From assembly GCA_008632985.1 (NCBI GenBank), contig QPGO01000005.1:1-64000 (forward strand): 64,000 bases of DNA. Reading direction: 5' to 3'. The notes below the pieces were generated by a model. The model was not told the DNA's origin and ran no database searches. It saw only the letters and a program-made list of their open reading frames with translations. Within the stretch, counting starts at the first letter, position 1; each line of letters begins with the position of its first letter. Origin of the DNA: Psammoneis japonica (Eukaryota). The translations under genes and the position numbers were made by a program. Shown here one piece after another: positions 1,745 to 31,545 of the stretch.

Positions 1745-2021
1745 GGGAGCACACTCCCTTGTGTCGGACAGACTGGCATGGACAGCACAGAGAGATCTGA
1801 TGATCTCTCTCTGCTCACTTTCTTTCTCATCTAGCACACGATTGTCATCTGTCCCAAACATCCGTTAGATTGTCCCGATGCCGGGAGCACACTCCCTTGT
1901 GTCGGACAGACCAGCACAGACAGCACAGAGAGATCCGATGATCTCTCTCTGCTCACTTTCTTTCTCATCTAGCACACGATTGTCATCTGTCCTAGATGTC
2001 CATTGGATCATCCCGATGCCG
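1745..2021 (+). repeat. Tandem direct repeat, two ~138-bp units
   Basis: GGGAGCACACTCCCTTGTGTCGGACAGAC...CATCTAGCACACGATTGTCATCTGTCC...CCCGATGCC begins at 1745 and again at 1883. Confidence 0.9.
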
Positions 2022-3690
2022 CTAGTCCGCAACCTGCTCACCAGTGTTAATCTGAAAACACTTGTGGCCACCAGCCCCGGTGCACTTTTGTGAGCTCCTC
2101 CTTGAGATCAGCGTTGCACAGCTGTGCCAAGGCCCATCTTCGTCAATCCAAATTTTCCAACCCAAACATCCCTCTCTTCTCCAAGCACTCTTCCTTCTCC
2201 TCATCCTGGCTCCTCCAAGTTTGATGCTCACCTTTCCCCAAGTCTGGTCCATGCTGTGTGTCTCGCAGCCTCCTCCACAGCGGCCTGGGGGGCTCCCTCC
2301 TCTTGATCCTCAACACCCAGCCAATTTTCTTTGTTCACAATGATGCTCCAATCAAACACAAGCTGATCATCTTTGCTGACCCCTCTGTTGCAGACATTGT
2401 GGGTGCCAACCTTCAAGGCTGTCCAGGTTTTCTTGCTGCTGCCCAACTCTTCAATCTTGTTCATTCATTCATGCCAACCTCCCCAACTCAGCCCCACCAA
2501 CCCTTCTCCTGTGCTCAAGCCGCCAAGCAACCTTCCCAAGACACCCATTCTGAAACCACCTTTTCTCTCTTTGCTGTGTCTTGGCACCCTCCTCTGCCCT
2601 CCTGACTCTCCTCACCTGCCCAGAAGTGCTTCTTCCCACCCTGCTGAGACATTGACACCAACACTGATGCAGAAGCTCTGTGCCACACCTCTTTTCACAC
2701 CACCTCTTGGTTGGAAGGGGGTGCTGGGTGAGGTGGAGGTGCCAGAGGGCTCCATTTCTGGAGGGTGGACCTGAGGAGTTGGGGCTGTGATTGGAGCAAA
2801 TGGCTTCTCTTGCAGCAGGGCAACCTGCTCCAGGGAGTGACAGGCGACATGGCATTGAGCACATGCAGCAAAGGTGTGTCAACAGCATGGCAGTCATGTT
2901 GGCAGTGAACAAGATCCATGCTTTCAGAGGGGGTTGTGTTGTCAGGACCTGGCCCACCTCCTCTGGGACCATCTTGTCATGGCCCACAAGCACCAAAGCA
3001 TTCTTTGAAATGTCCTTCTTGATTCCTTCTTTGAGCAACACAATCTTTGCCCTTGTTGATGCCATCAAAAAATGCTGAGATTTGTCTGTGCAACTCCTGC
3101 CTCAATGCCCACATTGCCAACAAGCACCATTGCCCCCACACCTCTGCCAGCCTTTGACTCATGTCTTCTGGCCACCCTTCAAAAAAAAATGCCTGGCTGG
3201 ACCTCTTCCCTCCAGTGGCTTGAAGCCCTCACTCTCACACCTTTCCCTTTTTTGAGCCTCCCTCTGGCACAAGCTGTCCTCATCCTCCTGCCTCCAAGCT
3301 TGTCACACCCTCCACCCTCTCATCAGCATTGACACCTCTGCCCCTGTGGACAATGACTCCCCTCCCCTTGGCAAACCTCTTCAGCCCCTTGTTGGAAACT
3401 CCTTTTTCTTTTCAAGTCCCTTGTTCTTTGCCCCTGACCCAAGACATCTGACCAGCCACACTTGTTCTCTGCCCTCATCTCCAAGTGCCTTCCCTTTTTG
3501 AAACAGCCCAGTTTGCTCTTTGGATGACTCCTCTCAAGTCTCAAGCAGAGCCTCCCCCACCACCCCTTCTGATGACCCACCCAATTTGATGCCTCTTTGC
3601 CAGCATCCCAACCAGCACCATGACCACCATCTTCAATGGCCACCCTTCCTTCAGCATGAAGGTTTTGTCCAAGGTTGCCCCCCTGGCCCC

Positions 3691-3798
3691 ACTTTCTTGA
3701 GCCTTGTCCTCATGTGTGTGCTCACCCCACTTGACCAAGAACTGCATGCCAGTGCTTCTTCCCTCCCCACTCCTCCCCAGATCCAGCACACCAGCCAT
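3691..3798 (-). pseudogene. Possible degenerate chromodomain fragment
   Basis: VLDLGRSGEGRSTGMQFLVKWGEHTHEDKAQES resembles the chromodomain (F/Y)LVKWxGYxxxxxxWE motif with Y->H. Short and heavily decayed. Confidence 0.3.
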
Positions 3799-6700
3799 TG
3801 GAGTGCAGATCACAGACAGAAAATGGAAGGTGTCATTGTTCTGCAGGCTGAAAAAATGGTCGGGAGACAAAGAAAAATCCTTTTGGGAACAAAAAATGAT
3901 GTTGGCTTGATTGGATCACAAAATGATGAAGTCAAAAAAGAGAGCACATCACAGAGTTCAGCAACACAGCTCAAGGCCACAACCTGAAAGAGTGCTGAAG
4001 GGCAAAGAGAATGTGGTGACATGACAGGCTCCCCAAATGCTGGGGCTGTGGCGGTGGTGCAAGCACCAGCAGAAGAGAATGAGAGGAGGACAGCAATGTG
4101 GCAGACTCCATGAGCACCAGGGCTGTGACAACATGAGCACCATCAGAAGAGAATGAGAGGTGGATCTCAGAGAGATTTGCTCATCAGTCCAAAAGGGTGG
4201 TCTGGTCATCATCCATGTTCAGTCTGTCCATGGTGTGAAGATTGCTTTCTGGAAAAGATTTGCAACCAGCAGCTCTTCTGCAGGGTCTTTGGTCTCTGGT
4301 GGGCTCACATGATTGAGGGCATGTTCTTGCAAGAGATCAGCCACAGCATCTTATGATTTTGCACGTTTGGCATCACAAAAAAAAGTTGAGCCCAACAGTT
4401 CTTGAGCCACCACAAAGGCAGCACAAATGCTCAGAAGCCCCACTGCAGCGAGGACACAGTTGGAACACTGTGCTGATCTCCACAAGGGAGTCAACGACAG
4501 TCTTTTTGAGGGTCAGATGTGCCACAGTGGAGGGCAAAAAATGCACACACACCACAAAACAATTTTGTTGACAATGCTGGGAAATGTCAGCTGCAGAAAC
4601 AAAAAATGGGCTGGCTTGATTGGCTCACAAGCAAAACAAGCCATGGTGGAATTTTCAACACAGAAAAGAGCACAAACTGCTCACAAGGCCACAACCAGTC
4701 AGAACAGCAACAGCCAGCTGAGCTGACAAGCACAAGAGTCCTCTCTGTAAACTGGCAACAGCAACAACACATGCACTGGTGAGAAAGAGTGAGAAGAGCA
4801 GATCTCAGAGAGATCTCACTCATCTGTCTGAAGGGTCTGGCTGTCATCCATGTGCAGTCTGACCATGTGCAATGGTCAGTCTGCTGACGCTCTCACAATG
4901 ACAGCCCAGCTTGCTGCCTCTCTGTTTCTCTTGGCAGCGCTGGCTGCCATGACATTCCTGATGCTGCAGCTGTCCTGCCCTCTCTCCATCTCTCTTGCCC
5001 ACTCTCTCCTCTTTGCCAAACAAGGCATCCACTCAACAGGTGCTGACCAACACTTTTTCCTGCCTCCCAGCTGGTCTGCTGCCCTCTCCTCCTGGTCTGA
5101 CCCGTGCCAATTTTTGATTCCTTGCCACTGCCCTCTTCCAACTTGACTCTCCCAGCTTTTCCTCTGTGTCTTCTTCTGTCTCCAATCACATCCTCCACAG
5201 TCTTCCTCAACAAACAACCCAACTTTGCTGTCATCAGCACAGTGCCCTTCTCCTGCTCCTGTGCCATCCTGACCTCCAACTGGCCCTCTCTTCCTGTTTC
5301 TTTTTTCCTTGCTGACTTGTGCTTCCATTCCCTCTCACAAGCCCATCCAAGTGACCATCTCTCATCCTCGTCCCATGTCTCCCTCCTCCTCTTCCTCTGC
5401 AAGCTCCACCGCCCTGCTGTCCTCCCTCCAACCTCTGACACACCTGCCTTGTTGCCCCTGTGGACAGCACGGCTCAGAGATCCCTTTGGTGGCCATGTGC
5501 TCACTTGCTCCAAGATGCGTGCAAGGGCCCTCTCTCCAGTGGCGTCTTTGACAAAATCTGTGATGTCATTGAAAACTGTGGTCCTCTCAGCAGCATTTGT
5601 CACTCTTGTCATCTCATGTCCTTCTCAAACTGCTGGCTGGTCATCCCAATCCCTGACTGCCCTCTCAAGTGACCTGCCAACATTGAAGCACAGCTTGCGC
5701 CAGGCTCAATGTGGCCTCCCTGTGCTCTGTGCTCCCTCCATCCACCACTTCCTTGCTTTCAATGTCATGGTCCCTCCAGCTCCTCCCCATCCTGCACTTG
5801 GTTGCCTGCTCCTTCCAGCTCACTTGCCAAGGCTTGCCCCTCAGCTGCACTTGTGACAACCTTCTGGGGTGCAGTGCCCCTTCCAACAGCAGCTCTTTTG
5901 TCATCATTGCAGTCAACCAATCCAGCCTTTTTCTTCTCCCCTTCACTCTTGATCACTGGGGTGGAATGGGCTGCCATTTCCACACCCTCTTCTTTGGCCA
6001 CTCACCCAACAACTCTTCCTCTGTCCCACCCCTGCATCCCAAGCTCCCCTGGAACAACCAGCCCAACTTCTCTCATTCTCATGCTTCATTTTTTTCATCC
6101 CACAAATCTTCTCTTGCTCCTTTTGCCAGTCAACCTCCTTGTCCAAGCCACCATCACCTGGAAACAACTTCTCGCCAATTGTTTTGGCTCTGTCCATCAT
6201 TCATCTGCCCCCCAGTCAATGGTCTGTTCAATTTCTTGGTGCCTCAACCTTGGCCTGGCTCTTTCCAACCACCTGCCAATCCTTTCTTTGCTTTGCTGCC
6301 CCCCTCTGCTTCCTTCCATCCATCTGTCTGCATCTCTGAGCCCAGCCTTGTTTTCCAAACCCAGTCACCACACACACTTGCACTGCCCCCCTGATCCTTT
6401 TGTGCTGCAATTTTCCCTTTGTTGCCACAAAACAACTTGGCCAAGTTGGAGCAGACCCTGATGGCTTCTGCAGCATTGCACGCTGCTTGTGTCAGTGCCT
6501 CCACATGCAAAATGTCAAGTGACTGTTGCATCCTGCAGCCTCATTGGAGCTCTTTTCAAATGAAAAGAAAGGCGCCGTTGGTGCTGGGAGGCAGAACACA
6601 GCAGTGCACACTCTCAAGAAAAGAGTGACAGGTGCAAAAACAGAGCAGAGGAAAGAAAAGCAACCACACAATGATGGCTGATTTGTCATCATCCATCCAT

Positions 6701-6867
6701 CCATTTTCATCTTGTGGCAGAGAATTTGGATGTTGGATGTGAGCCCAATGAAAACTTCCATTGTCCAGATCATGATGGATTGGGGGGGGGGGGGGGGATC
6801 TCTTGCTTGTTGCAGTGCTTTCATGTGTGCCAAACAACAGATTGTCAAAGGCTGGCTGTTGTGCCAA

Positions 6868-7106
6868 GTTGAATGCCATCTGCAATGCCACCCACAGTGT
6901 CATGTTGAAATGCTGGCCACCACCACATTGTGTTGAATGCCATCTGTGCAGTGTCATGTTGAATGCTGGCCATCATCATGTTGCATCAAACACCATCTGC
7001 AGTGTTTTGTGCTGTCATGTTGAGTGTTGAATGCTGGCTGTCACATCACATCAAATGCCATCCTGTGTGTTGCGTCAAATGCCAGCTGTTGCATCATGTC
7101 AAATGC
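6868..7106 (+). repeat. Degenerate short tandem repeats (GTTGAATGCCATC / GTGTCATGTTGAATGCTGGC)
   Basis: Several imperfect copies next to the Tc1-like remnant; possibly subterminal repeats. Confidence 0.6.
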
Positions 7107-7229
7107 AGTTGATCAAGATGCTTCAGAGCAGCAAAGTTCAGTTGACACATCAAAAAACAAAATTAGACAAACCAACAGCAACAGAGGCACAGGTGAAAAA
7201 GTTGTCAAAATCATTGCTGCCTGCTTCAC

Positions 7230-8230
7230 TTTTCTTGCTGCATTCTGGAACCCTGGCATTTTGAAAAAGTTGTGGGCTCTTGTTGGCATCATTTCTGCCA
7301 ACACAAGCTCATGACCCCAGTCCCTTGCAGCATCTAAATTGCATTAATTCCACCTTGCATGAGCTTCCCACTGTTGCCCTCAATGAGGTCACAAACTCTG
7401 TTGGAGATGTGAACAGATGCATTGTCTGCAACCACAGCCAAGCCTGGTTCATAAAGACAGCATTTCCAAAGTGCAGGAACCACTTTTTCTTCCACACGAG
7501 CCTTGAATCTGGCCATGTCCACTGTTCCACATTCTGTGTCTTTGTTGTTGGGATGATTGTGCACATGCTCCACCATCTTGCAAGATTCTTTCACAAACCC
7601 AGCATGTCATCAGAGGCAATTGGGGGTTGCACCACTTGTGGAAATCTTTCTCAAAATGCAAATCAACCACAGGTGGATTGTCCAGTTCCTCCCATCCTCC
7701 AGCATGCAGACACTGAGGCACATTTTGTTTTGGCTGTTTCATCAAGAAATGCAGCTGTTGTGGGTTTTGGTGGGAACACATCCAGCCATCTTTGATGCCA
7801 CTGCTTTTCAGCTTCACACCTCTGTTGGGCACAGACTGTGGCCTTCTACAAGCTGTGGCCAAGTCAAAACAGTTGGCACCACGTGTCACTTGGGCTCCAT
7901 GTTTTGCCATGTCTCTCCTTTCTGTTGCCAGCTGCATCTCATCAAGGTGCAAATGGGGCATCTCTCTTTGATGGCATGGAGCACATCATGATTGTCAGCT
8001 TCAGAAAATGAACAAGCAGCTCTTGTTGTGACATCATGCCATCTTTTCCAGCTTCTTGCTCTGTGATGAGTTTCAGCTTTCATCTCACCAGGCTGGAGCA
8101 GATGAAGCCACTTCCAAAAGGTTTTGCATGGGGTGCTCTTCATCCAAGAGCCATCTGTTTCCTGCCAATCATCTTTGTTGAATGTTTGCACTTTGTTCCC
8201 ATCATTCTTGCCAGCACAGCTCAAAGACTT
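7230..8230 (-). mobile_element. Decayed IS630/Tc1-mariner (DDE) transposase
   Basis: Frame-broken fragments in the expected order: PHLHLDEMQ (cf. PxLYLDE), AFLDETAK (first catalytic D) and GTVDMARFKARVEEKVVPAL...AVVADNASVHISNRVCDLIE (DNAxxH, second D). Confidence 0.75.
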
Positions 8231-9105
8231 GCCACCTGGCTAATCTGTTGTTGTTTCAATGTGTGCCTTTGGGATTTTCTTGTCATCATGCTGAACTCCA
8301 CCATGGCTTCATGAGGCTGGAGGACACAAACAAGCAAAGCAGTGCACTCCAGGTTTCACAGACCCCCCTGAATTGCATCAATTCTTTCTGTGCCCCCAAA
8401 ATGGTTTTTGCTTCTTTCTTCTTGCCACAAAAAGAAGCCAGAGCAACCGCGATGCAGGAAGCTGCATCAAAAAAAAAAGCGCCATTGGTTGCATGGTGCA
8501 TGACCACAACAAAAGGAGCACAGATTGTCATGACAACAATGCTTGCCATGACAGTGCAGCATTCAGACACTCTTCTCAGTGCAACAAACAAATGATGTGA
8601 GCCATAAAAGCCAACGGATGAAGCCAAATCAACAAAGCACAAACAACATGGCCAATGGCATGTGGTCAAAGCCCACAACCGTGTGGTGTGCAAAATGACT
8701 TTTTGTTGTGTGATGACACAACAATGCAACAATCAGGCCTTTCTCAATGCAGTGAACAAACAATGCAGGCCATGAAAGCCAACAGATGAAGCTGAGTCAA
8801 TGAAGCACAAACAACATCATGGGGCTGCTGACAGATGCAAAAACATGCAACATCAGTGGAAGTGGCTCTTTGAGTGCTTCTCAATGAGCCCACAATCAAT
8901 TTTTGAAGAAAAGGCAAAAAAGCAGATTCTTGCATTGATTTCTGATTCAATGATGCCTGGCTGAATTTCAAAAGAGGTCAAATGGGGACAAAAGTGTGAC
9001 AGCATCTCAACAAGTGCTGCTGTGTGGCACAGCTGCATTGAAAAAACTCACATTTTGCTTCTGCACGTGCAAGATTTCATGCTTGGGGCAAAGTGTGCAG
9101 AGTGT

Positions 9106-9510
9106 TGGAGGGGCAAAAGTTGCAAGCTCAGAGCGGGGCCAATGGCAAAGAACAGAGACAATGGCAACAAATGCATGTGCACACATGTGGTGCCACAAGG
9201 GCATGTTTGGTTGGAGGGTGATGCCCCGTTGTGCTCAACAGATTCCTGTCATTGTGGTCTGCCCAGCTCATTTGCAAACTTACTTTGAGGTTGTTTGGGC
9301 TTTTGTTTGTGGCCTCTGGGGTGAAGTCTGGACATGCATGGCTCCTCCAGTCTGTTTCTTCAATGAGAACAACCTGTGCTGCTGCTGTCACCAGAACAAA
9401 TGCTCTGAGACAGATGATGCAAGCTTCACAGCTGACCTCACTCTGAATGGCCACAGTCCAAAGTCAATGAATGCACTCTGTTTGTGCTTGACTGCCAGCC
9501 TGGCAAAGGC
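9106..9510 (+). pseudogene. Hypermutated copy of IMP1-like exon 2 and its 3' flank (source ~31131-31525)
   Basis: Colinear with the source. NKCMCTHVVPQGHVWLEGDAPLCSTDSCHCG vs DKCMSTYVVPQGHVWLEGDAPLCSIDSRHYG, followed by indels and stops. Confidence 0.92.
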
Positions 9511-11445
9511 AAAAAGACACAGACCTGGTTTAAAGTTCTGTCACACCATTGACTGGCATGTTCAACATGGGCCAACCCACACTTCTGGCACACTGACATG
9601 CAGCAGAAGGGGAAAGGATTGGCCAGAACTGGCATCACCTGATGGCAACACCTTTCAGAAATGACTGACAATGGGGTGGGCACCACAAATTGCAAAGTGC
9701 GTCACCTCCTTGATTGTGCTCCATTTGAGACAACGCTTGCATGCAGAAACCCAGCTCTGCATTTTAGCCACACAGAGTGGGTGGGGTGTTTTCCTCTGCT
9801 GAGTCCAAAAGCAACTCTTGATCCTCTGCAAAACGGTTTTGACACCTGTTGCACACAGCCATGGATTCAGCCTCAGGAGCAAGACAATGATGTTGAGAAG
9901 TCTTTCTTGAGTCAACATCACAACCATGAACTTGTTTGTTGTGTGACTGCCACATGCTGTGTAAATTGTGGGGAGCTCAAAGCACTGTTGGGTGGCACCA
10001 GATGTTTAACAGGTGCCTGCTCAAGTTCTGGAACACTTTCCAAACCACTCACCTTCATGAAACTGGAGCCCACAACAAGCACCAAGCTCAAGAGGAGAAC
10101 AAACCCCCTCCTGATTGAGTGCTCTAAGTTGGGCACTTCATTTGGAAATTGTGATGGGAGGTGCCATTTCATCATGGGTCCAAGCTTCAGGTGCAAAGAA
10201 GAGAAAATCTTCTGGAGAGGATGTGTGTGGTGTCAAGTTTGTTGCCATGCTTGTGAAGCCCTTGAGGGAACTTCCCATGCTGAGGCTCATCCGAGGGACA
10301 CTTGACAGCGTGGTCACAGTCTTCCATGGGTGCTCACAAGACAAGCATCAGTGCCATCAGGCAGGATTGCACCTGCAAAGAACAATCTTGTTTGTGGGAA
10401 GAAGCAGACACAAGTGTCATCTGTTCTGACAATGAACCAAGCTGGTGTGAGCGACCGTCCAGTCAATGAGAGCTGAGTCAGATGAGTGTTGCCAGCTGCA
10501 CTCACACATGCACTCCAACAAGGGAGAAGCAATGGCAGCACATTGCTTGGGGGTGCTTGAGCCTGGCAGAAACAATGCCATCTGATGACAAAAGTCAAGC
10601 TTGACAGCGAGGAAAGGGAGTTGCAACAGGCATGTCATGAGAATGTCACCCATGAAGCTGATTGGCCAATCCATCAACTCCAACATTGACCCAAGCATTG
10701 AGGGGCAACAAGTCTACCAGGGATGTGCAATTTTGATGACTTGTGAACCAAGACACTGGTGAGCCAACCATGAGGAGGAAGAATCCAAGTGAGAAACAAT
10801 GGCACACAACAGCTGGCAAACTTTGTTGACAACACCCCAGTCTGAAGATGGGACATGTGTGCCATGTGGCATCACAGCCAAAAGTCCATCTTCTGATGGT
10901 CTGCACCAGAAGAGTCCAATGAAGGCCTGGCAACCAAAAGGTGGCTGGGCACACCTGCCAGACCTTGTTGTTGCAGCGCGGGGGCATTGATGCCCAGGCA
11001 ACAGGATGCGCTGCAATGCTCCAAGAGCTGAAACAAAAACCTGCAAACAGATGGCACACCACAGGCTTCAACCAAATGCTGGTCAAGCAACCGCCAATCG
11101 TGAGACAGTCTCCGAAAAGCCAAAAATGGCGCCATCGTCTCTTGATGCACACGGGGACCATTGCCACCTGCTGCAGAGTGCAAAGCAAGTTGACAAACAA
11201 CCTCGGACAAAGGGACGTTAAATGATGCCAACTGAGAGACGAGCAAGACTCTCACTGGGGCAAGGATCTGAGGCGAGCAGAGAACACGTCAGGGGGGGGA
11301 GGAGGCTCGAACATTGCCAGTTTGGAGATGGGGGGGGGGGGGGGCGGGGGCCAAAGATCCAGCAAGTGCCCACCATAGAGTGTAGACAACATAACCCAAT
11401 GTTGTCGCCGAGTTCCAAGTTTAGTAGATTACACATGGGTGTCTA

Positions 11446-15813: not shown

Positions 15814-16779
15814 TAGCACTGGTGGACAAGCTGAGTGCACGCCATCAGGGTCGATGTTGTCTTTCGAATTGTAACCTCTTCGTCACTACTGTAGGGCTAG
15901 TGGTACCATGTTGCATGAAGACCAGGCACTAGGGCCCTACAGTACTTACTCTAGCTGGGTGTTTTCAATGAACTTGGATTTGTGATGTGTGTGCGGCGGT
16001 CATCCCGTAGAAACTCCACAGTTCTGTACGGTACGACAGACTACTACATAGACTCAGACATAGACTGCGTCAGTACAGTACATAGAATGTTCTACTTGAC
16101 CGGCATTTCTGGGGGAAATGGTGGACATTTATGTAATCATCTGTTTGTCTCAAACAAGACGCAGCATAAATGTGGGGCCAGCCACAGTGGAATGGAGAGG
16201 GTCATTCCTACATCATCACACATCATGGACAGTGGATCACTCTCAGGTTCATCCGGTCCACTGTGGCGGCACCCCAATTCTTACAGTGTGTGAAAATGAC
16301 CCTTTTTCCTCTGCTGCACAATGAATCTGGATGGGGTCATTTGATCTCTTGAAAGCGACTGGGTGACACATCGTGGCAACGTGGGTGGCCTGGCATGCAA
16401 CGGAGCACCAAACACCGCCAGCTGCTGCCAACTCTGATGTTTGTCAGCCATCAGTGCCCTCAAATCCTCCCTCCCTGCTGCAAGCCAAATGGCGCTTGGG
16501 GGGCAAAAATGGCCTGAAAATGCTGTGTGTGACCAGTGTGTCCAAAAATTGAAAAATGTGCAGGTGGGTGGGCAGCCAATGACCTCTGGTGGCAGTGGAG
16601 AGCCGGCGACAATGCAGGCTGGCCCACGAACAGAAGCAAGGGCAGTGCACAACCCAGCAGCAAGAAAAAAGCCTGCAAATCATCAAAATTCTCAAGGAGG
16701 TTTTGGCTGCATCTTGTTGACAGAGTTCTCTGCAACTGAGCTGGCGCCCTCCAAAGCCACTGTGTTGTTGCCTCAAATT

Positions 16780-17780
16780 TGTTGATGAACAAGTTGTGGC
16801 TGTTGGGCTTCTGAGCTGACAACTGCTGCTGTGGCCACTGTTGCTCTGCTTGCCACTCTGACAGAGCAACAGCTGCTGGCTGCTGTGGCGGTTGCGTGGC
16901 TCCTGCAGCCGGGTGGCAATTTGGAGATGCAGTGCCAGCCAGGTGACCAGCGCAGGGGCAGCACAGCACTGCTGCTGCAGCTGTTGCTGTCGGCACCTGC
17001 CACAACCACTGCCACAACTGCCACAACCTGTGACTCTGGTGGAACAACTGCCACTGCTGCTGCAGTGACTCCTGTGGCTGGGTGACAAAGGGGGGTGCTG
17101 TGCTCTGGCCAGGCGACAAGTGGCAAGTGTGGAGATGTGCCACGCACCACTGCTGCTGCCCCCCCCCCCCCCCCCCAACCACTGCCGCAACTGGCTGCTG
17201 CTGTGACAATCACTGCTGCAACTGTTGGCACCTGAGACTTCTCTGGCAGGGCAACAAAAACTGCCGCTGCTGCAGCTGTGGCGATTCCCATGGTCGGGTG
17301 ATGAGAAGGGGGTGCAGTGCTGGTTTTGGGTGATGAGAAGGGGACAAGCCACCACTTCTGCAACTGCTGCTGCTGTGACCAACTGCTGCCACACATGTTG
17401 CCACTTGTGACTTTGGTGGGGTGACAACAACCACCACTGCTGTGACTGCCACATCAACTCTTCCGCAGTCAGGTGAGACAAGGGGGGGTTGCAGCACGGG
17501 TCAGGTGATGAGAAGGGGATGCACTGCTGCTGCTGCAACCACTGCTTCCCCAACAACTGCCACTGCTGTGACCATCAACTGCTGCAGTCATTGCCACTTG
17601 CAACTCTGGTGAGTTGACAACCACTGCTGCAACTGCCACAATGATTCTTGCAGACAGACAATGAGAAGGGCACTGTCAGGTGATGAGAAGGGGATGTTCC
17701 ACCACTGCTGAAACTGCTGTTCCGCCCCGATGGTGATTCCCAGCCGGGTGATGAGAACTGGAGCTGCTGCTGCTGCAAGG
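16780..17780. repeat. Low-complexity (CTG/CCACTGCTG) region with recurring GGTGATGAGAAGGG motif
   Basis: Motif or near-match at about 17297, 17329, 17504, 17660, 17679 and 17747, within CTG/ACTGCC-rich sequence. Confidence 0.7.
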
Positions 17781-20372
17781 AGTTTGTGTGCTTGGACTGC
17801 TTGGTGGTTGCTTCTTGGCCACTCTCATTTTGGCTTTTGTGGAGGCTGTGTTGCTTGCCAGTTGGGCATGACTCTTTTTGTGTTGTCTTCCACACCTTGT
17901 CCATTGGCAGCAGTGGCTGCTGCATTCCATGACACTCATTTCCAGCAGAGGTTTTGGACTGATGCTTTGCTGGTGCATCAACACATGCTCCTCTGATTGC
18001 CTTGAGCTCAGCTTCTCAACAAGGTGAGGATCAGAGTTGCATGCACTGCACGTGGCTTCACAGATTGCTTGCACTGCCTGACATGCCATGTGTTTTTCAC
18101 TTCATTCCAGCAGAGACTTTGTTGCATGTGTTTTCATTGTGTGTCCATGAAGCTGGCCTTGCCAATGTCTTCCTCTCCCTCCTCTGCTCCACAGGATGAT
18201 TCGGCCATTGTTTGAGATTGTGGTTTGTGAAAGAGAGCCTTGCACACTCATCTAAACTGGGGGACAATGCCAATGGACACATCAACATTGGAGCCCAAAG
18301 CTGGTGCTCCTGCCTTTGCCCAAAATGTGCCTTGATGAAGCTTTGGAGGCATTGAGGGCAGTGCTGGTTCAAAATGATCCCACCCATGCATGGTCATGTG
18401 CTGTCCGATGTCAAGATCCGGACAGATTTTTTGGGCTGAATCTGTCAAAAGAGTGGGACCCGCCCTTTCATTCTCAAAGCACAGGCCAAATGCTTTGTCA
18501 AAATGCTTGTCACTCTTCAAGAAGGCTGTGCAGCATGGCTCATCATGCCAATGAACGTCAACATCTTCAGGCTTTGGAAAGCACCTTGCAAGACGACCAC
18601 ACAGATGCAAGCACACAGGTCATGCCCCCCCCATTCTCCTCTTGCTGTCCACAACATGAGCACATCAGACAGAATTTGTCACTGACTTGACAGATTTTGA
18701 TGATGACACAAGTCCATCAAACCTCAACCAAATGGTGCTTGGCAACAGATTTGAAAATCATTTGGATCCACCAGCAGCAAGTGAGCCTGGTGGCATTTCC
18801 ACTTTACCCAAAACTTGCCAACAGATTCTCTCCACAAATGGTCATGGATTGACTGCATTTGCACAAGCTGGCAAGCTTGCTGCTGCAGCAAGCTGTGGCA
18901 CAAAAAACTCTGGAACAACAAATGTGTGCAGAAGCAGCACCAGGGCCCCAGCAGAAATGCCACAAAAGTCCGGAATTTTGTAATTTTTTGACATCCCTGG
19001 TGCTGATTCCATGACAGATTCTACGCAGTTTGTTGATGTTCCAGACTTTTTGACATTTCTGCTGAGGCCCTGGTGCTGTTTCCATGGAAATTTGTTGTTC
19101 CAGAGCTCTTTTGCAAGGTGGCAAGCTGTCAGACTGTGACACAATGGAGCAAGCTCTTCCTTTTCCAAGTTTGTTGGCAAGCTGTCCATTGCCTTTGCTG
19201 CCTTTTGCTCTTTGGGTTGGCTCTCATGTCAGAAACTCTGCATTGGACAAAGCAGCTTTTTGCAATGCTCTGATTTGCTTTGGCGCCCAGTGTGTGGTGC
19301 TTGATGGCCCCACCCTCAACTTCAGATGAGTTTGATGTTCATGTGCTTTTGCATTTGGCAAGCTTCTCAAAACACAGCCACATTTGTGTTTTGATTGCAA
19401 TGCACACATCATGAGCAAAGTTTGCATCAAAATTGTTTCATTGACTCCTTGTTGCAGCCAACAAAGCAAAAGTTTTCAAAAGCACGTGCTCATGTGTGGC
19501 ATCTCCAGCTTGTCTTCCAACCCTGCATCTGTTGTTCACAACAATGGAGTGTTCTTTGTTGCCTCCAATGCTGGATGTCCCACCAAGCTGGCATCGTTGC
19601 TGACACACAGCAGCACTGTCTTGTTCTTTAGCCACATTTGTGCAACTCCATGGTGAAGGCACAGCCTGTGGCCACCTTGGAACCACTGGTTTTGACTTTC
19701 ACAGGGGCCACAAAGCTTGTTGTCATTGTTGTTTGTCATGAGTTGGTTTTGGGCAGCAAATGAAGGATGGTCTGTGGTTGGAACAACCAACACCAACCAA
19801 GCATTGTTGCCTGCATGAGCCCCCCTTTTCACACTGAAAAAGAGAATTGACAATGAAAATGAGAGCTGAGGTCAGCTGCACATGCAAAATTTTTGAGTTT
19901 TGTGCATTGTGGTTGCATCCACTGATGCCAAGTCTTGAAGCTTTGGGGAGCCCACATCTGGGAGGAACTTGGTGCTTGCACAGCAACAGGCCCTGGCACC
20001 ATCTTCCCACTGGGGTTGCATGATGCTGATGATCTGGTGAGAGGAAGGGATTCTCAAGCCTCTCAAGCAATGCTCATTCTTGCAGCTACAAATCCACTTG
20101 CTTCAAAGTGAGTGTGGCTTCTGCCACTTGTCTGAGAGTCATGACATGATCATTTGCAAGGTTGCTTGAGCTTCTTTGCAAAACAACCCATTGCACAATG
20201 CCACGAAAGGTGTGGGGCAATGGCTTGCTCAAGGCACGGCTTGAGACATTTGCATTTTTTCTCCTTTTTTGTGATCCAACAGGAGAACTTGTTCTGGAGT
20301 CTTAAAAAGGCAAGACTTGGCATCAGCATTTGCAATTCTCACACTGAGTGCGTCAATCATGTGTGCCCACCA

Positions 20373-20606
20373 AGTCACGACTCAACGTCATTCTGGTCGC
20401 ATCTCACGACCACAACCCAGACTCAGATTTTCTCTTCAAAACAATTGGCTCATCACAAAATCGATTCAAACAGAAGCAACGACATTCGTCATAATTTCTA
20501 GACAACGACTTTCAACAAGCGTCTGTTTACCTCTGTCGCTGTTCACATTGCTGCCAACCTCCGAGGTCTCATCCATCCTGCTCAGCTGCAGGACTGTATC
20601 TCGACT
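20373..20606 (+). repeat. 5' LTR (234 bp, AGTC...GACT)
   Basis: Direct repeat of 27372-27605; preceded by TSD CACCA. Confidence 0.95.
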
Positions 20607-20768
20607 GGTTGTAGAGACCAATTTACGCGTTGACGAGAGCTCCTGACCGAGTCATCGTCACGGACGCTTTCGGTTTTTGATTTTGAAGCAAACCCGGGAA
20701 ACAGCTGAGTCTCTCTCGCTTCTCTCGTCTTCACTCTAACAAGAACCTCCCATGCTGCACTCTCTGTC

Positions 20769-23700
20769 ATGGCTGCCATCGACCCAGATGTTCTGGCGAA
20801 GGCGTTTGCCGATGCAATGGCCGCTGACGCCGCGGCGACCGCTCATCCGGCTCCAACCAAGCCGTTACGTGGTGGAATTCACCCAACCCACGGGGTTTAC
20901 ATTGGTGGTTCCAAACTCAACAACAACTACGAACAATCCAACGATAGAACCTGCCGATTCGCCTCTCAGCGCCGTCATCCCAAGGCTCTCGACTCGATAG
21001 AACGATCTCTCCGCGATCAACAAGCTTCCGCAATGACTTCCAAGTTCAACGGTCGACTTGAGATTTCGGACGGTCCCATCAACGAGCTTGACAAGGACCA
21101 TTTCGTCAAGACTGTTCGAGATCTAGTAGAAGCCCACGGTCAGCAGACGTTCTACCATGTCAAGGACAGCGACGACAAGGTCCAACATGTCTTCGACCAT
21201 CTTCACGAGTTTGCTGTGACCGATCTCGTGAACGAGTACACGGCCAGGAAAGCAGCTGCCGATGACACCAAGTACGACGAGATCGAGCTCGACGATGTCG
21301 GGCTCTCTCAACTTCTCGTTCACTCAAGAATCACTAACACCTTTCGCGAGAAAATCGAGACCAAGTTCAACCATCTTTTGGACTGCCAAGACTACCCTGG
21401 ATCTGTTCCATTCATGATGGCTCTCGATGCTTGCAATGCCAGCGCTCTAACGGACATTGAGACGGCTGAGAAGCAGCTAGAAGACCTTGGTTTGGTTGAC
21501 TGTCCCGGCGAGGATTGCACGGACTTTGCTGCCGAAGCTCTTCGCATCGTGAAAATTATGCAGACCGACTGCGCGCTTCCGGCGAACACAAGCTCCAAGC
21601 TGCTCCACAAGATCTCCTCTACGTCCTCTGAATGCTTCAATCGCCGAGTCTACAACAAGCTCGACGACGTCAAGGCTATGGAACGCAAGCACCGCCTCAA
21701 GAATCCTGCTGACATCGTGTCCGACAGCGATTGCAGAACGCTCGGACCGGTCGGTGTCATTGCGTGGATTCAAGAGCAACACAACGAACTCGTGAAGGAC
21801 GGGGAATGGCCTGCATTAGTCGCCAAGCTACCCGAGAGTAATCTTTCGACTACGGACAACCCTGGGAAGACGAAGCACTGTTGTGGTTGCGGTCTCGAGG
21901 GGTGCACCAAGAAGACGTGTCCGAAGTGCAACGCCAAACCGCCGCGCGATGATCCTCCTCCCAATCCGCCGCCTGCAGACGACCCTTCCAAGAAGAAGAG
22001 GCGACCCATCGCTGTCTGGCGCACTAAATTTGACGGAGAAACGAAGAAGGATAAGAATGGCAAGGAATGGAAGTGGTGTGCCACGTGCAAGGCGAAGGGT
22101 GCCGACAAACCTGGAATCCACCAGAAGCACTCTACCGCGGAACATGCCGACGACCGCAGGCAACCTCCCAAGGAGACCCCAGCCGGGAATTTGTCTTCCG
22201 TTGCTGATCCAGATAGTGGCGTGCCCATGGGTCCGCCCGCTCAGACTACCAAGGCACCAGAGGGAGACGAATCCGACCCCAACGAGTTGGTTTTCACGGG
22301 AATGTGGTGCGCGGCTACGGATCCCGTTACCGACCCGGATTTCTGTTCCGCCCCTGTCACTGCTGCAATTGTTGTTACTCCGGCTTCTTCGGCCGAGAGG
22401 GAGAGCGACACAGTCGTTAGTGCTGAGGTGGTTTGCATCGAAACGAGCCCACCTGCACTCACCTCAGTCGTGGATCCAGTCGTGTCTCCCATCGTGGTTG
22501 AGACTGTCACTCCCGAAGACGCCGATGACTTCTACGAATGCTCCGACGCTTTCTCTACCTTTGAAAACGAACCACCGGCTGTTGAGTTGTTTCCGGCCTC
22601 GAAGCTGTACTCCATCAAGCATCCAGATGAGTTCTTTGACGCTCCCGCACATTTGACGGATGTGCTGTCAGACGACACCAAGTTAGATCTCATCCTTGAA
22701 CACGACGCACACTTTGAAGACGCATGCTACGACTTGCCTCCGTGTGTTACGTATCGTGGCTTCGATTTCTACGATCCAGAGGTCCTGGACACGGATGATT
22801 GTCACGAGGACGTCGAAGACGAGCCCACTTCGCGTCGCTCACTCTTGGGTCGAGTCAAGCCACTCACATTCTGGCTCGCCGCCATGTTTTGGGAAACGGT
22901 GCTACATCTTTGCTTTGCTCCGATCCCATGTGTTCCTCGAGCTCTACGCCGCCAGCGCAAACTCCCAACTTTGCACGGGTTTCCAGCCTCCTGGATGGTC
23001 CCATCCATTGCAGTGATGGCATGGTCAGCAGTTTACGCCGGTCAACAGCCCGAGCATCCCTTCTCGCACGTGCCAAGTCGTTTTTCGACCGCCAGCTCTC
23101 AAGTCTACCACATTGTGGAAGAGCTGGATGACCGGATAGTGCCAGATGCGGGGTCACTGTTCGAACATCACAGGATCAAAGGCACGCAGGTGCTCACCGA
23201 GTTTGTCACGCGCCATCCGTCACACGCACTGAGCACTCGTCTCAAGGCCTGCTGGGAGAGCCCAGAAGTGGCTGAACGGTCTGATGCGATAGACGAATCA
23301 GCCTTCTTTGACACCTGTGAGGAACTGGAACCTCTCGACGACCAGAAGCATTTCTTTGACGCTCTTGAGGACTTCAGCCCGGATTTCTTCCGGTTTGACG
23401 AGCTCTGTCTGCCGCATCACATCGTGGACACCACCCATTTTCAAGATCCTGTGGAGCCATTGGAGGAAGCAAGTGTTAGACCAGTCGTCTGTGATGCCTC
23501 CACCATCCAACCACTCACCGGACAATCACAAGCCGACCTCCTTGCATCCGATCCGCAGGCACTCATCGGTCTGTCGGACGAGGCTCTCACGGTCGTCATG
23601 GATGCTGGTGCCACGTTAGCTGTCACCCCCGATGAAGATGATTTTACGGGGCCTGTGACTGTTCCCAAGAAACCCTTACAGATCAATGGGATTGCCAACG

Positions 23701-26700
23701 GTCTTACCATCCAGGGTGCCAGTCCGGTTGCGTGGGTGTTCACAACGCCGAGTGGGGCTACCATCCAACTGAACACCATGGCATGCCACGTCCCTGGAGC
23801 CCGTCAGCGCCTGCCATCGCCTCAACGCCTCTTCAACGAAGAGAAGGGGGTACGTGGGAAGTGTGAGGGCGATGAAACCACTTTCCGTTTACATGTTGAC
23901 GGGACAGGCAAGTTGGTCGTGCCATGTCATCCATCAAGCCACTCACCCATTGCGTCGATGACCAAGGGCGCATCTGCCGCTCCTCAAGTGAACCTTCAGA
24001 TCCTTGACGAGGAGAATCAAAACCTCACGGCAGGCCAAAAGCTTCTTCTCGAAATGCACGCCCGTTTTGGCCATTTGAACTTTGGTCGCGTCCAAGCACT
24101 TCTCCGCGCAGTTCCGTTCCTTTCGAACCGTTTCAAGTCCGCAGCGAAGTGTGACCACCCAAGATGCGAGGCATGCGAGTGTGCTAAAGGTCACAGACGC
24201 TCTCTTGGATCTACTCACAAGTCGACAGTCCCTGAACACGACGGGGCCCTTCGAGCTGACCATCTTCGACCGGGTCAGGCTGTCAGCGTTGATCATTTTG
24301 AGTCGCGCCTTTTAGGCCGCACCTTCGACTCTTATGGCACAGCCACGTCCAAGCAATTCAAGGGCGGTTGTATCTTTGTCGACCACGCCTCTGGCTATGT
24401 CCAGGTCGAGCACCAACTAGGTTTCTCCGCTGTTGAGACGATCCGCGCGAAGCAAGCGTTTGAGAAACATGCTTTGGACCACGGGGTCATCGTCCAAGAA
24501 TTTCTTGCCGATGGTGGCGCTTTCAAGGCCAACGCTTTTGTACAACATGTGCGAGAACATGAACAACGTCTCCGTTTTTGTGGAACCAACGCCCATCATC
24601 AGAACGGCATCGCAGAGCGGGGTGTCCGCAGCATCTCCAACATGGCGAGAGCGATGTTGCTTCATGCATCAATCCACTGGAAGGGGGGAATTGACAGCTC
24701 CCCATGGCCCATGGCAGTTTCTTGTGCCACGTGTGTCTACAATGTCACCCCAACTTCCAAAGGACATTGCCCAGCGGACATTTTCACCGGCTCGACAGTG
24801 CCAAGACATCGGTTGCGCGACATTCACACATGGGGATGTCCAGCGTGCGCACTTGACCCGACCCTCGCTTCCGGGAAGAAGCTCCCACGTTGGGAGCCTC
24901 GCACTTGTCGCGCTTTGTTCGTGGGACTCAGTGCCATCCATTCCAGTGAGGTTCCTTTGGTCCTCAATTTTCAAACTGGAAGTGTCACACCTCAGCATCA
25001 TGTGGTCTTTGACGATCTCTTCACTGCCGTCCCATCAATCGAGAGGGAGACGGATCCACCTGATCACTGGGAACACTTGTGCCTCAACCAATCAACATGC
25101 ATCCCTCTGGAGAAGGATCAGGCAGTTCATTTGCACGATGAGTGGCTCACCCCTCCAGAGCGTCAATGTAAAGAACGAGAACTAGCCAGAGCAACACGCA
25201 TTCGCGGGCATTTTGAGCCTGCTCCATCGATTGCTGTGCCGGATTCACCCACTTCTCGCGACGACGTCACCGATCGAGTCGCACCTGCGACTCAGCAGCC
25301 AACGCCACCAGTCCCACCTGCGACTCAAACTCCCACAGACTCTACGGACTCTACACCAATTCAGCCACCTGAACCTCAAGACAGTGACGGACTTCCGCCA
25401 CCCGAAGCGCCGACGGAACCAACAGCTCCTCCCCCAGTCGAGACACCTCCCATGACGAATCCAGAGGGAGTGCCAGGGCTGCGACGGTCTTCACGGTCAA
25501 CCAAGGGACAGTTCAACTCTGCCAAGTTTGTAGATGAGGTCTGCTTCAGCTCCGTCGAGGAAATGCCGCTGCCGATCGGACACGAGGCTCAACCAGCGTA
25601 TCTGGTGACTCTCGAGACGGATTTGGACAGTGGTGCCATCAATGTCGGCGATCCACGAGCCCACGCAGCTAGCAAGAAAACCAAGGACCCTGACATGCCT
25701 TCGTCACACAATGCTCTGAAAGGTCCGGACGCCGACGAATGGATCAAGGCGATGAAAATTGAAGTCAACGCACTCATGCATCGTCGAGCCTGGAAAGCAG
25801 TCGAGCGTCAGCCGCATGTGAATGTACTTCCAGGCACATGGGCACTAAAGCTCAAGAGACTCCCAGATGGAACCCCTCTCAAGCACAAGGCCCGATGCTG
25901 CATCCGCGGTGATTTGCAGAAAGAAGGAGTCGACTGCTTCGAAACCCACGCACCGGTTGTGCAATGGTCCAGCATCCGACTCATGCTCACTGCGGCATTA
26001 AAGGAGGGATGGACTGCATGACAGGTGGACTGTGCCACAGCCTTTTGCCAAGCTGACATCGCCGAGGAAGTTTGCACAACACCGCCGAAGGGATTTGCGC
26101 CAAGGTCGGGATTTCTCAAACTTTTGAAAGGACCATGCGGCCTAAAGCTGTCTCCCAAGGGCTTCTACGAGAAGTTGCGAGCTGGTTTAACCGAGCGCGG
26201 ATGGGTGCCTTCAGCCATAGATCCCTGTTTGTATTTCAAAGAGGGCATGATGTGTGTGGTGCACGTCGACGACACCGTTTTTGCTGGAGCTTCAGCTGAA
26301 GCTCTAGAAGCCGAAATTTGCAAGTTAGGAGTCTCCGACGACGAACATCGCCACGCATTTGAACTTAGAGACGAAGGAGAAGTCGGCAACTTTCTCGGCA
26401 TCAAGATCAAAAAGCTCTCCAAGGGTCGATTTCTACTCACTCAACCCGGTCTAATTGACAAGGTCCTGCGCACCGCACAGATGCAGGATTGCAATGGAGC
26501 ATCTGCTCCAGCTCCACCTGCGGCCATTGGTGCCGACACAGACGGCCTGCCTTTTGATGAACCCTGCGATTGTCGCTCAGTTGTTGGAATGTTGATGTGC
26601 TTGGCAGCGAACAGCCGGCCAGACATTGCACATGCCACACATCAAGCAGCTCGATTCTCGTTTGCACCCCGAGCGTCCCACGCTGCTGCAGTGAAGCGGA

Positions 26701-27350
26701 CACTCCGACACCTCAAAGCAACTGCTGCTGAAGGTCTCATTCTCAAGCCTGCGCAAGATCATCGAGTTGATTGTTGCGTCGATTCTGACTTCGCGGGGTC
26801 ATTTGGTGTGGAAGATGGTCAAGACCCAGTTTCTGTCAAGTCCAGGACTGGATGCCTTGTCTGCTGCGCCGGCTGCCCGCTTGTCTGGGTGTCCAAGCTA
26901 CAGACTCTTGTGGCATTGTCGACTGTGGAAGCGGAATGTGTCGCACTTTCTCAAGCCATGCGCGATCTCATCCCTGTTCGTGAAGTTCTCAAGGAGCTCA
27001 ACCACCACGCATTCGGAAAGTCTGACCGCCAAAACCCAATCACGACTCACTCCAAGGCTTTTGAGCTCGCAACCCAAGGCACCGATGACTCGCCTGTAGA
27101 GCAGAATGTCCCACCTGCGTCCGTTGTGTGCGAAGATAACTCCGCGTGCCTCAAGTTCGCACGTGTGCCCAAGTTGTCTCTGCGAACCAAACACATCGGT
27201 ATCCCGCACCACTGGTTTAGGACTAAAGTCGAACAATTGGAGATCGACATCCAACCCATCAGCACTCTAGAGCAACTGGCCGATCAGTTCACGAAGGGAC
27301 TGCGGACCGATGCGTTCCGTGCGGCTAGAAAGGCTCTCATGGGCTGGTGA
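20769..27350 (+). pseudogene. Copia gag-pol polyprotein, one in-frame stop and numerous Tyr->Cys/His substitutions
   Basis: Zn knuckle CCGCGLEGCTKKTC, protease MDAGAT, integrase HARFGH...CEAC, VSVDH and QNGIAER, RT KARCCIRGD and VVHVDD, RNase H DSDFAG/EAEC/EDN/ADQFTK. The two long ORFs are in one frame, split by TGA at 26019-26021 (likely from CGA). Confidence 0.95.
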
Positions 27351-27371
27351 GCTCTCTCGGTTGAGAGGGAG

Positions 27372-27605
27372 AGTCACGACTCAACGTCATTCTGGTCGCA
27401 TCTCACGACTGCAACCCAGACTCAGATTTTCTCTTCGAAATGATTAGCTCATCACAAAATCGATTCAAACAGAAGCAACGACATTCGTCATGATTTCTAG
27501 ACAACGACTTTCAACAAGCGTCTGTTTACCTCTGTCGCCATTCACATTGCTGCCAACCTCCGAGGTCTTGTCCATCCCACTCAGCTGCAGGACTGCATCT
27601 CGACT
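27372..27605 (+). repeat. 3' LTR (234 bp)
   Basis: Follows the polypurine tract; followed by TSD CACCA. Confidence 0.95.
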
Positions 27606-28855
27606 CACCAGCCTTGGCATGGGATGTCTCTGTGGCTGCCATCTCTTGGCTTTTGAAGGAGTTCATTGGCACACTCAGCAAACTGTTCTTGGGTTGGCTG
27701 TTGGCAGCTGGGCTTGCATGGTGGTGACCAGGGTTGACAACAGGTTTGCCCCCCAGCAGCAGAAGGCATGGTCATTGCTTTGGCCAACAACCCACCAAGT
27801 TTGTCGCACACTTCGTCATCATGTCATGAGATGACTGCCCCCCCCCCTTCTTACGTTGAAGGGCATGGGCTCATTTGTCACAGTTGTGCAAAGTGCAGCA
27901 GGCAGGAGAGTGGCTGCAGAAATGCAAAAAACAACATGGCCCGCACTCAAAATGGGCTGTCATTTTTCGCACCACCTGGGGCTGGAATGTGCTGCATGTT
28001 GGGTGGAGAGTTTGCAGCCGCCACACTTGTCACATGTCTCAGGTGGATCAGGAGGCTCATGGCCAAGTCTCAACAAACAAAGGGCATCTTGGAACTCTTG
28101 ATGTGAGAGCTTGGCGCCATTTGGCGCTTCTGCGTCTCAGTGCCCAGGCCATTTTGTTGGGTGGAGTGCTGAGGAGATCAACTTGAGTGCATCTCCTCAT
28201 GCAGCTTGGCTCTTTCCTTTTGACCATTTCCCACTTCACTGTGCCAAAAATGTCCTTGCAGACAGCCAAGGTGAGTTCAGCACAGCCACAAAGTGAGCCA
28301 ATCACGCAAGAACATGCGAGGGTGCTTTTTGCGTCAAAGTTTTGCTTTGTTGGCTGCACTGGACAAGGGATTGACAGCCATGCAAATTTGATTGGGAGGG
28401 CAGACAAGACTGCTCTTGGGTTTTGTTGTCTGCCAAGGTCTTGCCAAACAGCGCTGCCCTCTTCGACATCAGCGAGCACGACTTGCAGCCCTTGGCCACT
28501 TTGCAGGCGCTGCCACTCTCGTGTTGTGGGGGCTTCTGCACACTGTGCTCCATGGGTGGCACCACATCACCATTTGGGATGAATCTTGAGCAACCAAGGT
28601 CCATGCATTGGATTTCTCCGCCACCCAGCAGCCAAAAGCTTGGGGTGGCAATTGAGCTCCGCACACACCAGCGGTGGTTCCCATCACAAGCTCAATGGCT
28701 TTTTGCCTCCTCAGCTGACAGGGGTTGTTCATGTGTGTGTGGCAGGCACAGTTTTGTTTTGGCAGCAGCAAGTTTGAAGCAAGTGTCGAACCATCACTGT
28801 GGTTCGATTTTCTGCCCGAGTGGGGCCATGGGCTGGTGTGTGTTGAAACACCCGT

Positions 28856-29120
28856 GATGGCGTCATCGCGAAGTGGCGACATCCAAGGATGGCCGCGTCA
28901 TCACGAAGCGGCGACACCAAGGATGGCGTCATCACGAAGCGGGCGGGGCGCGACGTTGCATCCGCGCGGCAGGATGGCATGCATCGCATCACGAAGCTTT
29001 ATGTATTGCCTGCATCTCATCAGCTAGCTCGCGGCATCCAGGTACTGTAGCATAATAGAGGATGGCGTCAACACGAAGCGGCGACATCCAACTGCTTCGC
29101 ATTGACGTCATCACGAAGCA
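28856..29120 (+). repeat. Cluster of ~6 imperfect GATGGCGTCATCACGAAGCGGCGAC repeats
   Basis: Copies at about 28856, 28888, 28922, 28973, 29061 and 29105, irregularly spaced. Confidence 0.8.
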
Positions 29121-31473: not shown

Positions 31474-31545
31474 TTCAAAGTCAACACACGTCTTCTGTTT
31501 ATGCACGACTAGTCTAGTTAAGGAAATTACATGAAGTTTGGAGAC

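Follow-up and report, generated by a model that had tools for sequence, protein, structure and literature searches.

In this study, a Ty1/copia retrotransposon and its surroundings were analyzed in a stretch of 64,000 nucleotides (nt) of the diatom Psammoneis japonica (contig QPGO01000005.1, positions 1–64,000 of the forward strand), referred to below as the window. The two long terminal repeats (LTRs) of the element differ only within pyrimidine-purine (YpR) dinucleotides, and most of the conserved tyrosines of its polyprotein have become cysteine or histidine. The element is likely to be a recent insertion whose integrated DNA afterwards underwent regional hypermutation of TpA to CpA or TpG. 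The sequences establish the spectrum of the changes, their polarity, TpA specificity, and strand symmetry, their regional borders, and the fact that they followed integration. What lies behind them may be a defence in which an enzyme targets DNA that is silenced or foreign. The features of the element are as follows.

20368..20372, no strand: target-site duplication CACCA, left copy (read from the sequence)
20373..20606, plus strand: 5′ LTR, 234 nt (direct repeat pair and MAFFT alignment)
20769..27350, plus strand: Ty1/copia gag-pol frame of 2193 codons with one in-frame TGA at 26019–26021 (open reading frames (ORFs); Pfam RVT_2 and gag_pre-integrase)
27363..27371, plus strand: purine run GAGAGGGAG, a putative polypurine-tract-like sequence abutting the 3′ LTR (read from the sequence)
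27372..27605, plus strand: 3′ LTR, 234 nt (direct repeat pair and MAFFT alignment)
27606..27610, no strand: target-site duplication CACCA, right copy (read from the sequence)

Differences between the two LTRs

The LTRs were the sole direct repeat pair within positions 19000–29000. Repeat search and MAFFT gave 94% identity over 234 nt without a gap. A script counted 14 differing nucleotides, all transitions, which were grouped into nine sites: five CA/TG, two TA/TG, one TA/CA, and one CG/CA. All 14 lay inside YpR dinucleotides, and none of the 124 positions outside YpR steps differed. Twelve CpGs were intact in both LTRs, while TA was retained in common at just two sites. When 14 differences were placed at random, five or more adjacent pairs arose in 0.04% of 200,000 trials, a test of adjacency alone. 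An earlier note on this DNA had reported nine variant sites (14 nt) in 234-bp LTRs with neither indels nor transversions, about a dozen shared CpGs, and two shared TA sites; alignment and script reproduced all of its site classes, and both shared counts agreed with it.

Changes of TA to CA or TG are compatible with 13 of the 14 nucleotide differences. At the eight inferred ancestral TpA sites, the 5′ LTR carries CA at three, TG at three, and TA at two; the 3′ LTR carries TG at four, CA at three, and TA at one. Summed over both LTRs (CA 6, TG 7, TA 3), the outcomes are strand-symmetric, and both kinds also occur in the ORF (His 8, Cys 14). Strand symmetry, together with the fact that the LTRs differ, means that the process acted on integrated double-stranded DNA and not on RNA, as the earlier note had proposed in placing the changes after insertion, in genomic DNA. 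APOBEC-like, strand-biased editing was considered and is not this process.

Editing of adenosine to inosine in the transcript by an ADAR-like enzyme before reverse transcription is very improbable. ADAR prefers a 5′ U (Discussion of 10.64898/2026.01.13.699255), and part of the TA depletion seen across the family could have been passed on in this way. However, both LTRs are copied from one template, so editing before reverse transcription would leave them identical. Such editing also predicts TA to TG on the sense strand only, whereas CA and TG are about equal here, and non-transposon blocks flanking the element are affected even more strongly. ADAR-type hyperediting was therefore rejected.

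Identity and coding frame of the element

The sequence CACCA stands at both ends of the element, which indicates a single insertion with a 5-bp target duplication and not a recombinant of two elements. The LTR termini are AGT...ACT (20373–20375 and 27603–27605), not the usual TG...CA. Within the frame, Pfam matched gag_pre-integrase at residues 1096–1140 and RVT_2 from residue 1674 on. The LTR pair, the 5-bp target duplication, and an integrase upstream of a copia-type reverse transcriptase (RT) identify the element as Ty1/copia. The closest polyprotein relatives were 56–64% identical; those with names belong to the diatom Fragilaria crotonensis or to MMETSP. The window is diatom nuclear DNA, and the element is a Ty1/copia retrotransposon of CoDi-like type. 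When 60 of 120 homologues were searched against the window by tblastn for further copia fragments, 103 segments were obtained, all of which fell within the element.

In the element, HVDD stands in place of the RT motif YVDD, and since this is the RT active site, the copy is very probably dead. In the alignment column of the single TGA stop, the homologues have Arg (25) or Lys (20). The stop is compatible with CGA to TGA and would then probably be a product of CpG decay.

Ancestral state and TpA specificity

The ancestral state of the variable LTR sites was addressed with the polyprotein. The element polyprotein (stop as X) was aligned with the first 45 homologues of at least 1900 amino acids among 120 returned. 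Columns in which at least 70% of the 45 homologues agree were taken as conserved (736 columns). A change of TAY to TGY or CAY is a change of TpA to TpG or CpA, so the loss of Tyr reports TpA conversion.

The element carried Cys or His at 22 of the 33 conserved Tyr columns (Cys 14, His 8); the other columns held Tyr (4), Phe (3), Ile (2), Thr (1), and Trp (1). None of the 45 aligned homologues had more than three His or Cys at the Tyr columns. Tyr made up 0.9% of the element residues, against 2.2–3.9% across all 120 homologues. Arg was retained at 47 of 51 conserved columns, and just one Gln and one Cys represented CpG-type changes; the Arg codons of the element were 92 CGN and 21 AGR. The other residue classes were mostly retained at 82–93%, with the exceptions of Ile (15/27) and Thr (17/30), whose losses were mostly first-position A-to-G changes.

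The sequence context of the changes was specific. At codon position 2, A-to-G changes were found at 14 of 33 columns after T and at 2 of 170 after A, C, or G. At first positions, 12 of 19 A-to-G candidates followed T, as against 10 of 101 unchanged codons starting with A. For T-to-C candidates at second positions, the next base was A in nine of ten. The changes are thus A-to-G and T-to-C transitions restricted to TpA. Biased gene conversion was rejected, as weak-to-strong changes outside TpA were rare (2/170). The order of Cys and His outcomes along the frame, judged by eye, gave 10 runs in the 22 outcomes where about 11 are expected, and no strand clustering was seen at that spacing.

These results support TpA, and not CpG, as the ancestral state at the LTR sites. 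The earlier note had read the CA/TG sites as near-saturated TpA, and the contrast between Tyr and Arg columns upholds this polarity. In the rival account, the CA/TG sites were methylated CpGs deaminated on opposite strands of the two LTRs. The single CG/CA site, at least ten window-specific CpG changes in the element, and flank CpG observed/expected values of 0.03–0.25 speak for CpG decay. Against it, only one LTR CpG was hit singly beside the 12 intact in both LTRs, and CpG observed/expected in the element is 0.95. The retention of Arg, with its two CpG-type changes, is also against it, and CpG decay cannot account for the loss of Tyr or for a TA observed/expected of 0.27. As an explanation of the CA/TG sites it is hardly credible.

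The hit rates lead to the same comparison. The model used assumed that each TpA in an LTR is hit with a probability of about 0.8. For ancestral TA sites, it predicts unhit, single, double-different (CA/TG), and double-same (invisible) classes in the proportions 0.04:0.32:0.32:0.32. The visible classes were observed 2, 3, and 5 times, which by this arithmetic fits about 15 ancestral TAs. The rate of about 0.8 hits per TpA in the ORF matches the rate required by the LTR classes. For CpG, the ORF hit rate is about 0.04, which over 18 candidate CpGs gives about 0.01 expected CA/TG sites (discordant double hits), against five seen. The single CG/CA site agrees with this rate of about 0.04 and is ordinary CpG decay.

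Comparison with related elements

A total of 80 metagenome-contig loci encoding related polyproteins served as the control. None of the 80 had a TA observed/expected below 0.34 (mean 0.60, standard deviation 0.14), as compared with 0.27 for the element. Terminal repeats were searched for in the 37 of the 80 loci that were at least 5.5 kb long; several pairs lay exactly at the ends of contigs and might be overlaps from assembly, which makes this a rough control. The 12 terminal-repeat pairs found had 25 differences in 2039 aligned nt plus 12 gap columns. These 25 comprised eight transversions, seven CpG-type changes, three TA-type changes, seven other transitions, and no CA/TG. The controls lack the signature, so the pattern belongs to the Psammoneis japonica genome and not to the element family.

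Two of the related metagenome fragments, loci L052 and L067, had lost much CpG (observed/expected 0.22 and 0.37) with a gain of CA/TG, and were only mildly depleted of TA (0.40 and 0.41). They are cases of ordinary CpG decay without the TpA process.

Regional extent of the hypermutation

The composition of the window was examined on both sides of the element. The regions and repeats concerned are as follows.

1..11200, no strand: TpA-erased block (in 1–11000, TA 29 against 687 expected and CG 113 against 676)
16283..20372, no strand: block adjoining the 5′ LTR, TpA- and CpG-erased (in 16501–20372, TA 7 against 235 and CG 35 against 247)
27606..28999, no strand: TpA-erased block abutting the 3′ LTR, with CpG partly lost (TA 1 against 72, CG 46 against 103)
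62988..64000, no strand: start of a further TpA- and CpG-erased block that continues past the window (in 63001–64000, TA 2 against 68 and CG 10 against 57)
29001–63000: host-gene region (TA 1171 against 2208 expected, CG 2124 against 2040)
1745..2020, plus strand: tandem pair of 138-nt units (1745–1882 and 1883–2020) whose differences at YpR steps have the spectrum of the LTRs
6511..9493, plus strand: hypermutated repeat copy A, with an unmutated copy B at 30381–31510

The TA observed/expected was 0.00–0.13 in the flanking blocks, 0.27 in the element, and about 0.55 in the host genes. The partly mutated element retains 100 TA. The longest TA-free runs, 2416 and 2304 nt, lay in block 1..11200. 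The borders were sharp: positions 16008–16282 hold 16 TA, and the next TA stands only at 18253, after 1971 nt without any. Hypermutation is confined to particular regions, and the rest of the window is normal. By the cluster thresholds used for the alga Bigelowiella natans, 17 of 64 1-kb segments passed, in runs of 11, 4, 1, and 1. Counted in steps of 500 nt, TA showed no significant patchiness within the element (chi-square about 16.6 with 13 degrees of freedom, calculated by hand).

CpG was also lost from the older flanking blocks, a point that goes beyond the earlier note. In block 1..11200, it is erased from about position 2500 (41 against 516 expected in 2501–11000). In 28501–29000, TA was 0 while the CpG observed/expected was 0.74. 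TpA is gone where CpG loss is partial, and CpG is intact in the young element; TpA conversion is therefore the faster of the two processes.

The tandem pair at 1745–2020 is unrelated to the LTRs yet repeats their spectrum. Its units differ by four CA/TG, one CG/TG, one CA/TA, one CA/CG, one TA/TG, and one other transition in 138 nt. The 14 TA of copy B are CA (9) or TG (5) in copy A, and none remains TA. The 41 CG of copy B are TG (22), CA (16), CG (1), or other (2) in copy A, a loss of 40 of 41. Copy B, outside the blocks, is unmutated and copy A, inside, is saturated, so targeting looks regional and not homology-driven.

The fuller extent of this repeat is 6511–12903 against 30381–31985. In the part of copy A outside the TA-free block (12532–12903), TA was mostly lost and CpG was retained at 14 of 19 places. 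The ORFs of the copy B region (30196–31017, plus strand; 31546–32670, minus strand) had no Pfam match. Short tandem and inverted repeats were also found inside the erased blocks at 8551–8817, 17178–17723, and 18902–19111. Their copies differ largely by CA/TG swaps, with five in 97 nt at 8551–8817 and two in 73 nt at 18902–19111.

The erased blocks contain few stop codons other than TGA. In 2501–11000, 429 of 453 stop codons in six frames were TGA, with 17 TAA and 7 TAG. Many long, overlapping, meaningless ORFs occur there on both strands (for example 4893–5624 minus, 5101–5856 plus, and 5673–6461 plus). Pfam gave no match for nine long ORFs inside the TA-free blocks.

Other copies and a public sequencing run

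One public sequencing run (X1) holds the locus, and no RNA run is listed as holding it. When the contigs of X1 were compared with the window, 536 variant rows resulted, of which 40 are listed; no listed row falls in an LTR. In this run, contig depth summed to about 3000–7400 over the element and 50–130 over the flanks, from which the element family is abundant. Variable places were A>G 134, T>C 127, C>T 95, and G>A 104, with 75 transversions; 460 of 535 were transitions. Judging from these summary counts, the variability would match the expectation for independent hits at about 200 ancestral TA sites. Among the 33 listed rows inside the element, at least ten were window-specific changes of CpG to CpA or TpG, and one had CA in the window where the other copies have TA.

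Seven listed places fell in the flanks. One was a TA/TG difference at 20088, and five of the six listed in 27731–28141 were CpG-type. The seven include one TA/TG, two CG/TG, two CA/CG, and one TG/CG, that is, almost only YpR steps. These differences may be allelic or strain-level and would then suggest recent or ongoing processes. The TA/TG difference at 20088 is the only hint of de novo events here.

An assembly or base-calling artefact at modified bases is a highly unlikely source of the pattern. The platforms of the assembly and of the run are not on record, and the run may come from the assembly's own sample, which also weighs on its independence as a check. Even so, de Bruijn contigs from the run (depth about 50–57) reproduced the TA-free flanks almost letter for letter, with one other letter in 573 nt and nine in 595 nt. 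Mixed-strand miscalls should also yield TA and CG, which are absent. The borders are sharp, and the host genes of the same window are normal.

Gene conversion is another conceivable source of the LTR differences, with copies that were mutated in other ways as donors. The abundance of the family and the predominance of transitions among its copies speak for this, and some of the LTR differences could have been supplied in this way. However, the donors would still need the same TpA process. Every one of the nine sites is YpR, and no non-YpR variant is linked to them, though the family has 75 transversion places, and the LTR hit rate equals that of the ORF. Gene conversion is accordingly regarded as unlikely.

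Several further points weigh against a recent insertion hypermutated in place. The main loose end is a set of four CA/TG swaps (eight listed rows) at which nearly all other copies agree among themselves. At three other listed places, the window keeps TA where other copies have TG. With these swaps and kept TA sites, simple independent hits in situ need a partly mutated master lineage or subfamilies. Seven of the 19 first-position A-to-G candidates have no preceding T. For the nine LTR sites, polarity is taken indirectly, from the polyprotein comparison and not from other family copies. None of the sampled relatives carries the signature, which means that diatoms in general do not share it. Finally, no enzyme, base modification, or de novo event was observed.

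Proposed mechanism

The sequence of events that would explain these results begins with one recent insertion of a high-copy CoDi-like Ty1/copia element. A regionally targeted process would then have acted on the integrated DNA, turning TpA into CpA (T-to-C) or TpG (A-to-G) on either strand and converting about 70–85% of the element's TpA sites. The two LTRs would have been hit independently, so that an ancestral TA often became CA in one and TG in the other. Such a process would create no stop codons from sense codons, as TAA and TAG are destroyed and the only stop that can arise is TGA from TAA. This would be why the 2193-codon frame remains open while conserved Tyr residues, including that of the RT active site, have been replaced. 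A second, slower process of CpG to TpG or CpA, as from deamination of methylated cytosine, would explain one LTR site and probably also the lone TGA stop. In the older neighbouring blocks, the joint action of both processes may have left CA or TG at every YpR step.

For the TpA step, deamination of adenine to hypoxanthine at 5′-TA, on one strand or the other and with G fixed when the DNA replicates, is the favoured chemistry. Oxidation of thymine to 5-hydroxymethyl- or 5-formyl-uracil, which would mispair with G, is the alternative. Adenine deamination, at roughly even odds, is preferred; the authors of the B. natans study had proposed it as well. The loss of CpG may most simply be explained by deamination of 5-methylcytosine in the same, presumably silenced, domains. 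A single enzyme for the TpA and CpG steps is possible but unsupported.

Neighbouring host genes

Host genes with few or no introns occupy 33226–62502. They include a kinesin gene (37456–38397, minus strand) and an ATR kinase gene (about 40545–50803, minus strand) with PI3/4-kinase, FAT, and M-HEAT domains. The ATR kinase was closest, at about 40% identity, to those of Seminavis, Odontella, Amphora, Nitzschia, and Cylindrotheca. Further genes encode an SPX protein (52970–56437, minus strand), an N-terminal asparagine amidohydrolase (56856–58097, plus strand), an RRM protein (58212–60272, plus strand), and a glycosyltransferase (61081–62502, minus strand). An HSF-type factor (14401–15882, minus strand; Pfam) lies in a stretch whose composition is normal, with an erased block on either side.

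Significance and comparison with known systems

Diatom retrotransposons have been dated with one constant rate (10.1101/2025.10.24.684338). For affected elements, dating by LTR divergence or consensus identity would be wrong by a large factor. The earlier note's warning that LTR dating overestimates the age here holds, as the apparent divergence is 6% while the 124 non-YpR positions show none. The process also matters for annotation. With TAA and TAG removed, long frames stay open in dead elements and junk blocks, and gene finders will call them. Genome-wide screens could use Tyr depletion with an excess of Cys and His, and kilobase-long TA-free runs.

Repeat-induced point mutation (RIP), known from Neurospora and other fungi, is a DNA-level, transition-only dinucleotide hypermutation that inactivates transposons and confounds divergence dating. 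It converts CpA/TpG to TpA and produces stop codons in large numbers. The present case resembles RIP in being transition-only, dinucleotide-specific, and a DNA-level inactivation of a transposon, and in confounding divergence dating. Its chemistry and its polarity run the other way, however: TpA is destroyed here, and there is one stop in 2193 codons. RIP also mutates all duplicated copies, whereas copy B (30381–31510) is normal here and copy A is saturated. On both polarity and the treatment of duplicated copies, fungal RIP was rejected.

CoDi-type Ty1/copia retrotransposons have been described from diatoms by Maumus et al. (2009, PMC2806351), and CpG methylation of diatom copia elements was reported in the same source. 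The element shares with the CoDi type its LTRs, the 5-bp target duplication, the RVT_2 and gag_pre-integrase matches, and the relatives in Fragilaria crotonensis. It differs in that the present copy is very probably inactivated, by missense changes, and in that its LTRs end in AGT...ACT rather than TG...CA. Decay of methylated CpG in silenced transposons explains the CG/CA site, the TGA at an Arg/Lys column, and the CpG-free older blocks; it cannot explain eight of the nine LTR sites or the loss of Tyr.

The closest known system is the TpA hypermutation of B. natans. In that study, mutation-accumulation lines had 231 of 302 mutations in two integrated viral regions (Mettrop et al., 10.64898/2026.01.13.699255). 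All AT-to-GC changes in the viral regions were on TpA, and the de novo rate was about 1000-fold above background (10.64898/2026.01.13.699255). The long-term trace is low TpA with high CpA and TpG, TpA-depleted genes were enriched in RT and DDE domains, and an ADAT2-like DNA adenine deaminase was proposed as the enzyme (10.64898/2026.01.13.699255).

In both systems, the only changes are those of TpA to TpG or CpA, on both strands and within confined regions. The host there is a chlorarachniophyte (rhizarian) with integrated viruses; here it is a diatom (stramenopile) with an LTR retrotransposon and unannotated repeats. TA in the nucleocytoplasmic large DNA virus (NCLDV) region is 0.45, whereas it is 0.00–0.13 over kilobases here and coupled to CpG loss. 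De novo events were measured there; here, the process is read from its traces in the sequence. No report of TpA-type hypermutation in diatoms was found in the literature searched, and the supplements of the preprints, which lay outside that search, may bear on it.

It is a tentative and still doubtful idea that diatoms, or this lineage, run the mirror image of RIP. This would be a DNA defence that edits TpA in silenced regions, by deaminating adenine or by changing the T:A pair in another way, until no TpA is left; it would kill transposons by missense only, with their frames remaining open. Together with CpG decay it would drive YpR steps to CA/TG, perhaps with one enzyme for both. If true, this would, with B. 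natans, indicate an old defence shared across stramenopiles and rhizarians and not the oddity of a single species. A process described in 2026 in one chlorarachniophyte would extend to diatoms, which are a major and genetically tractable group of algae, so the enzyme would be easier to seek. The case described here is TpA-only hypermutation of this recently described kind, in a new host lineage and at saturation.

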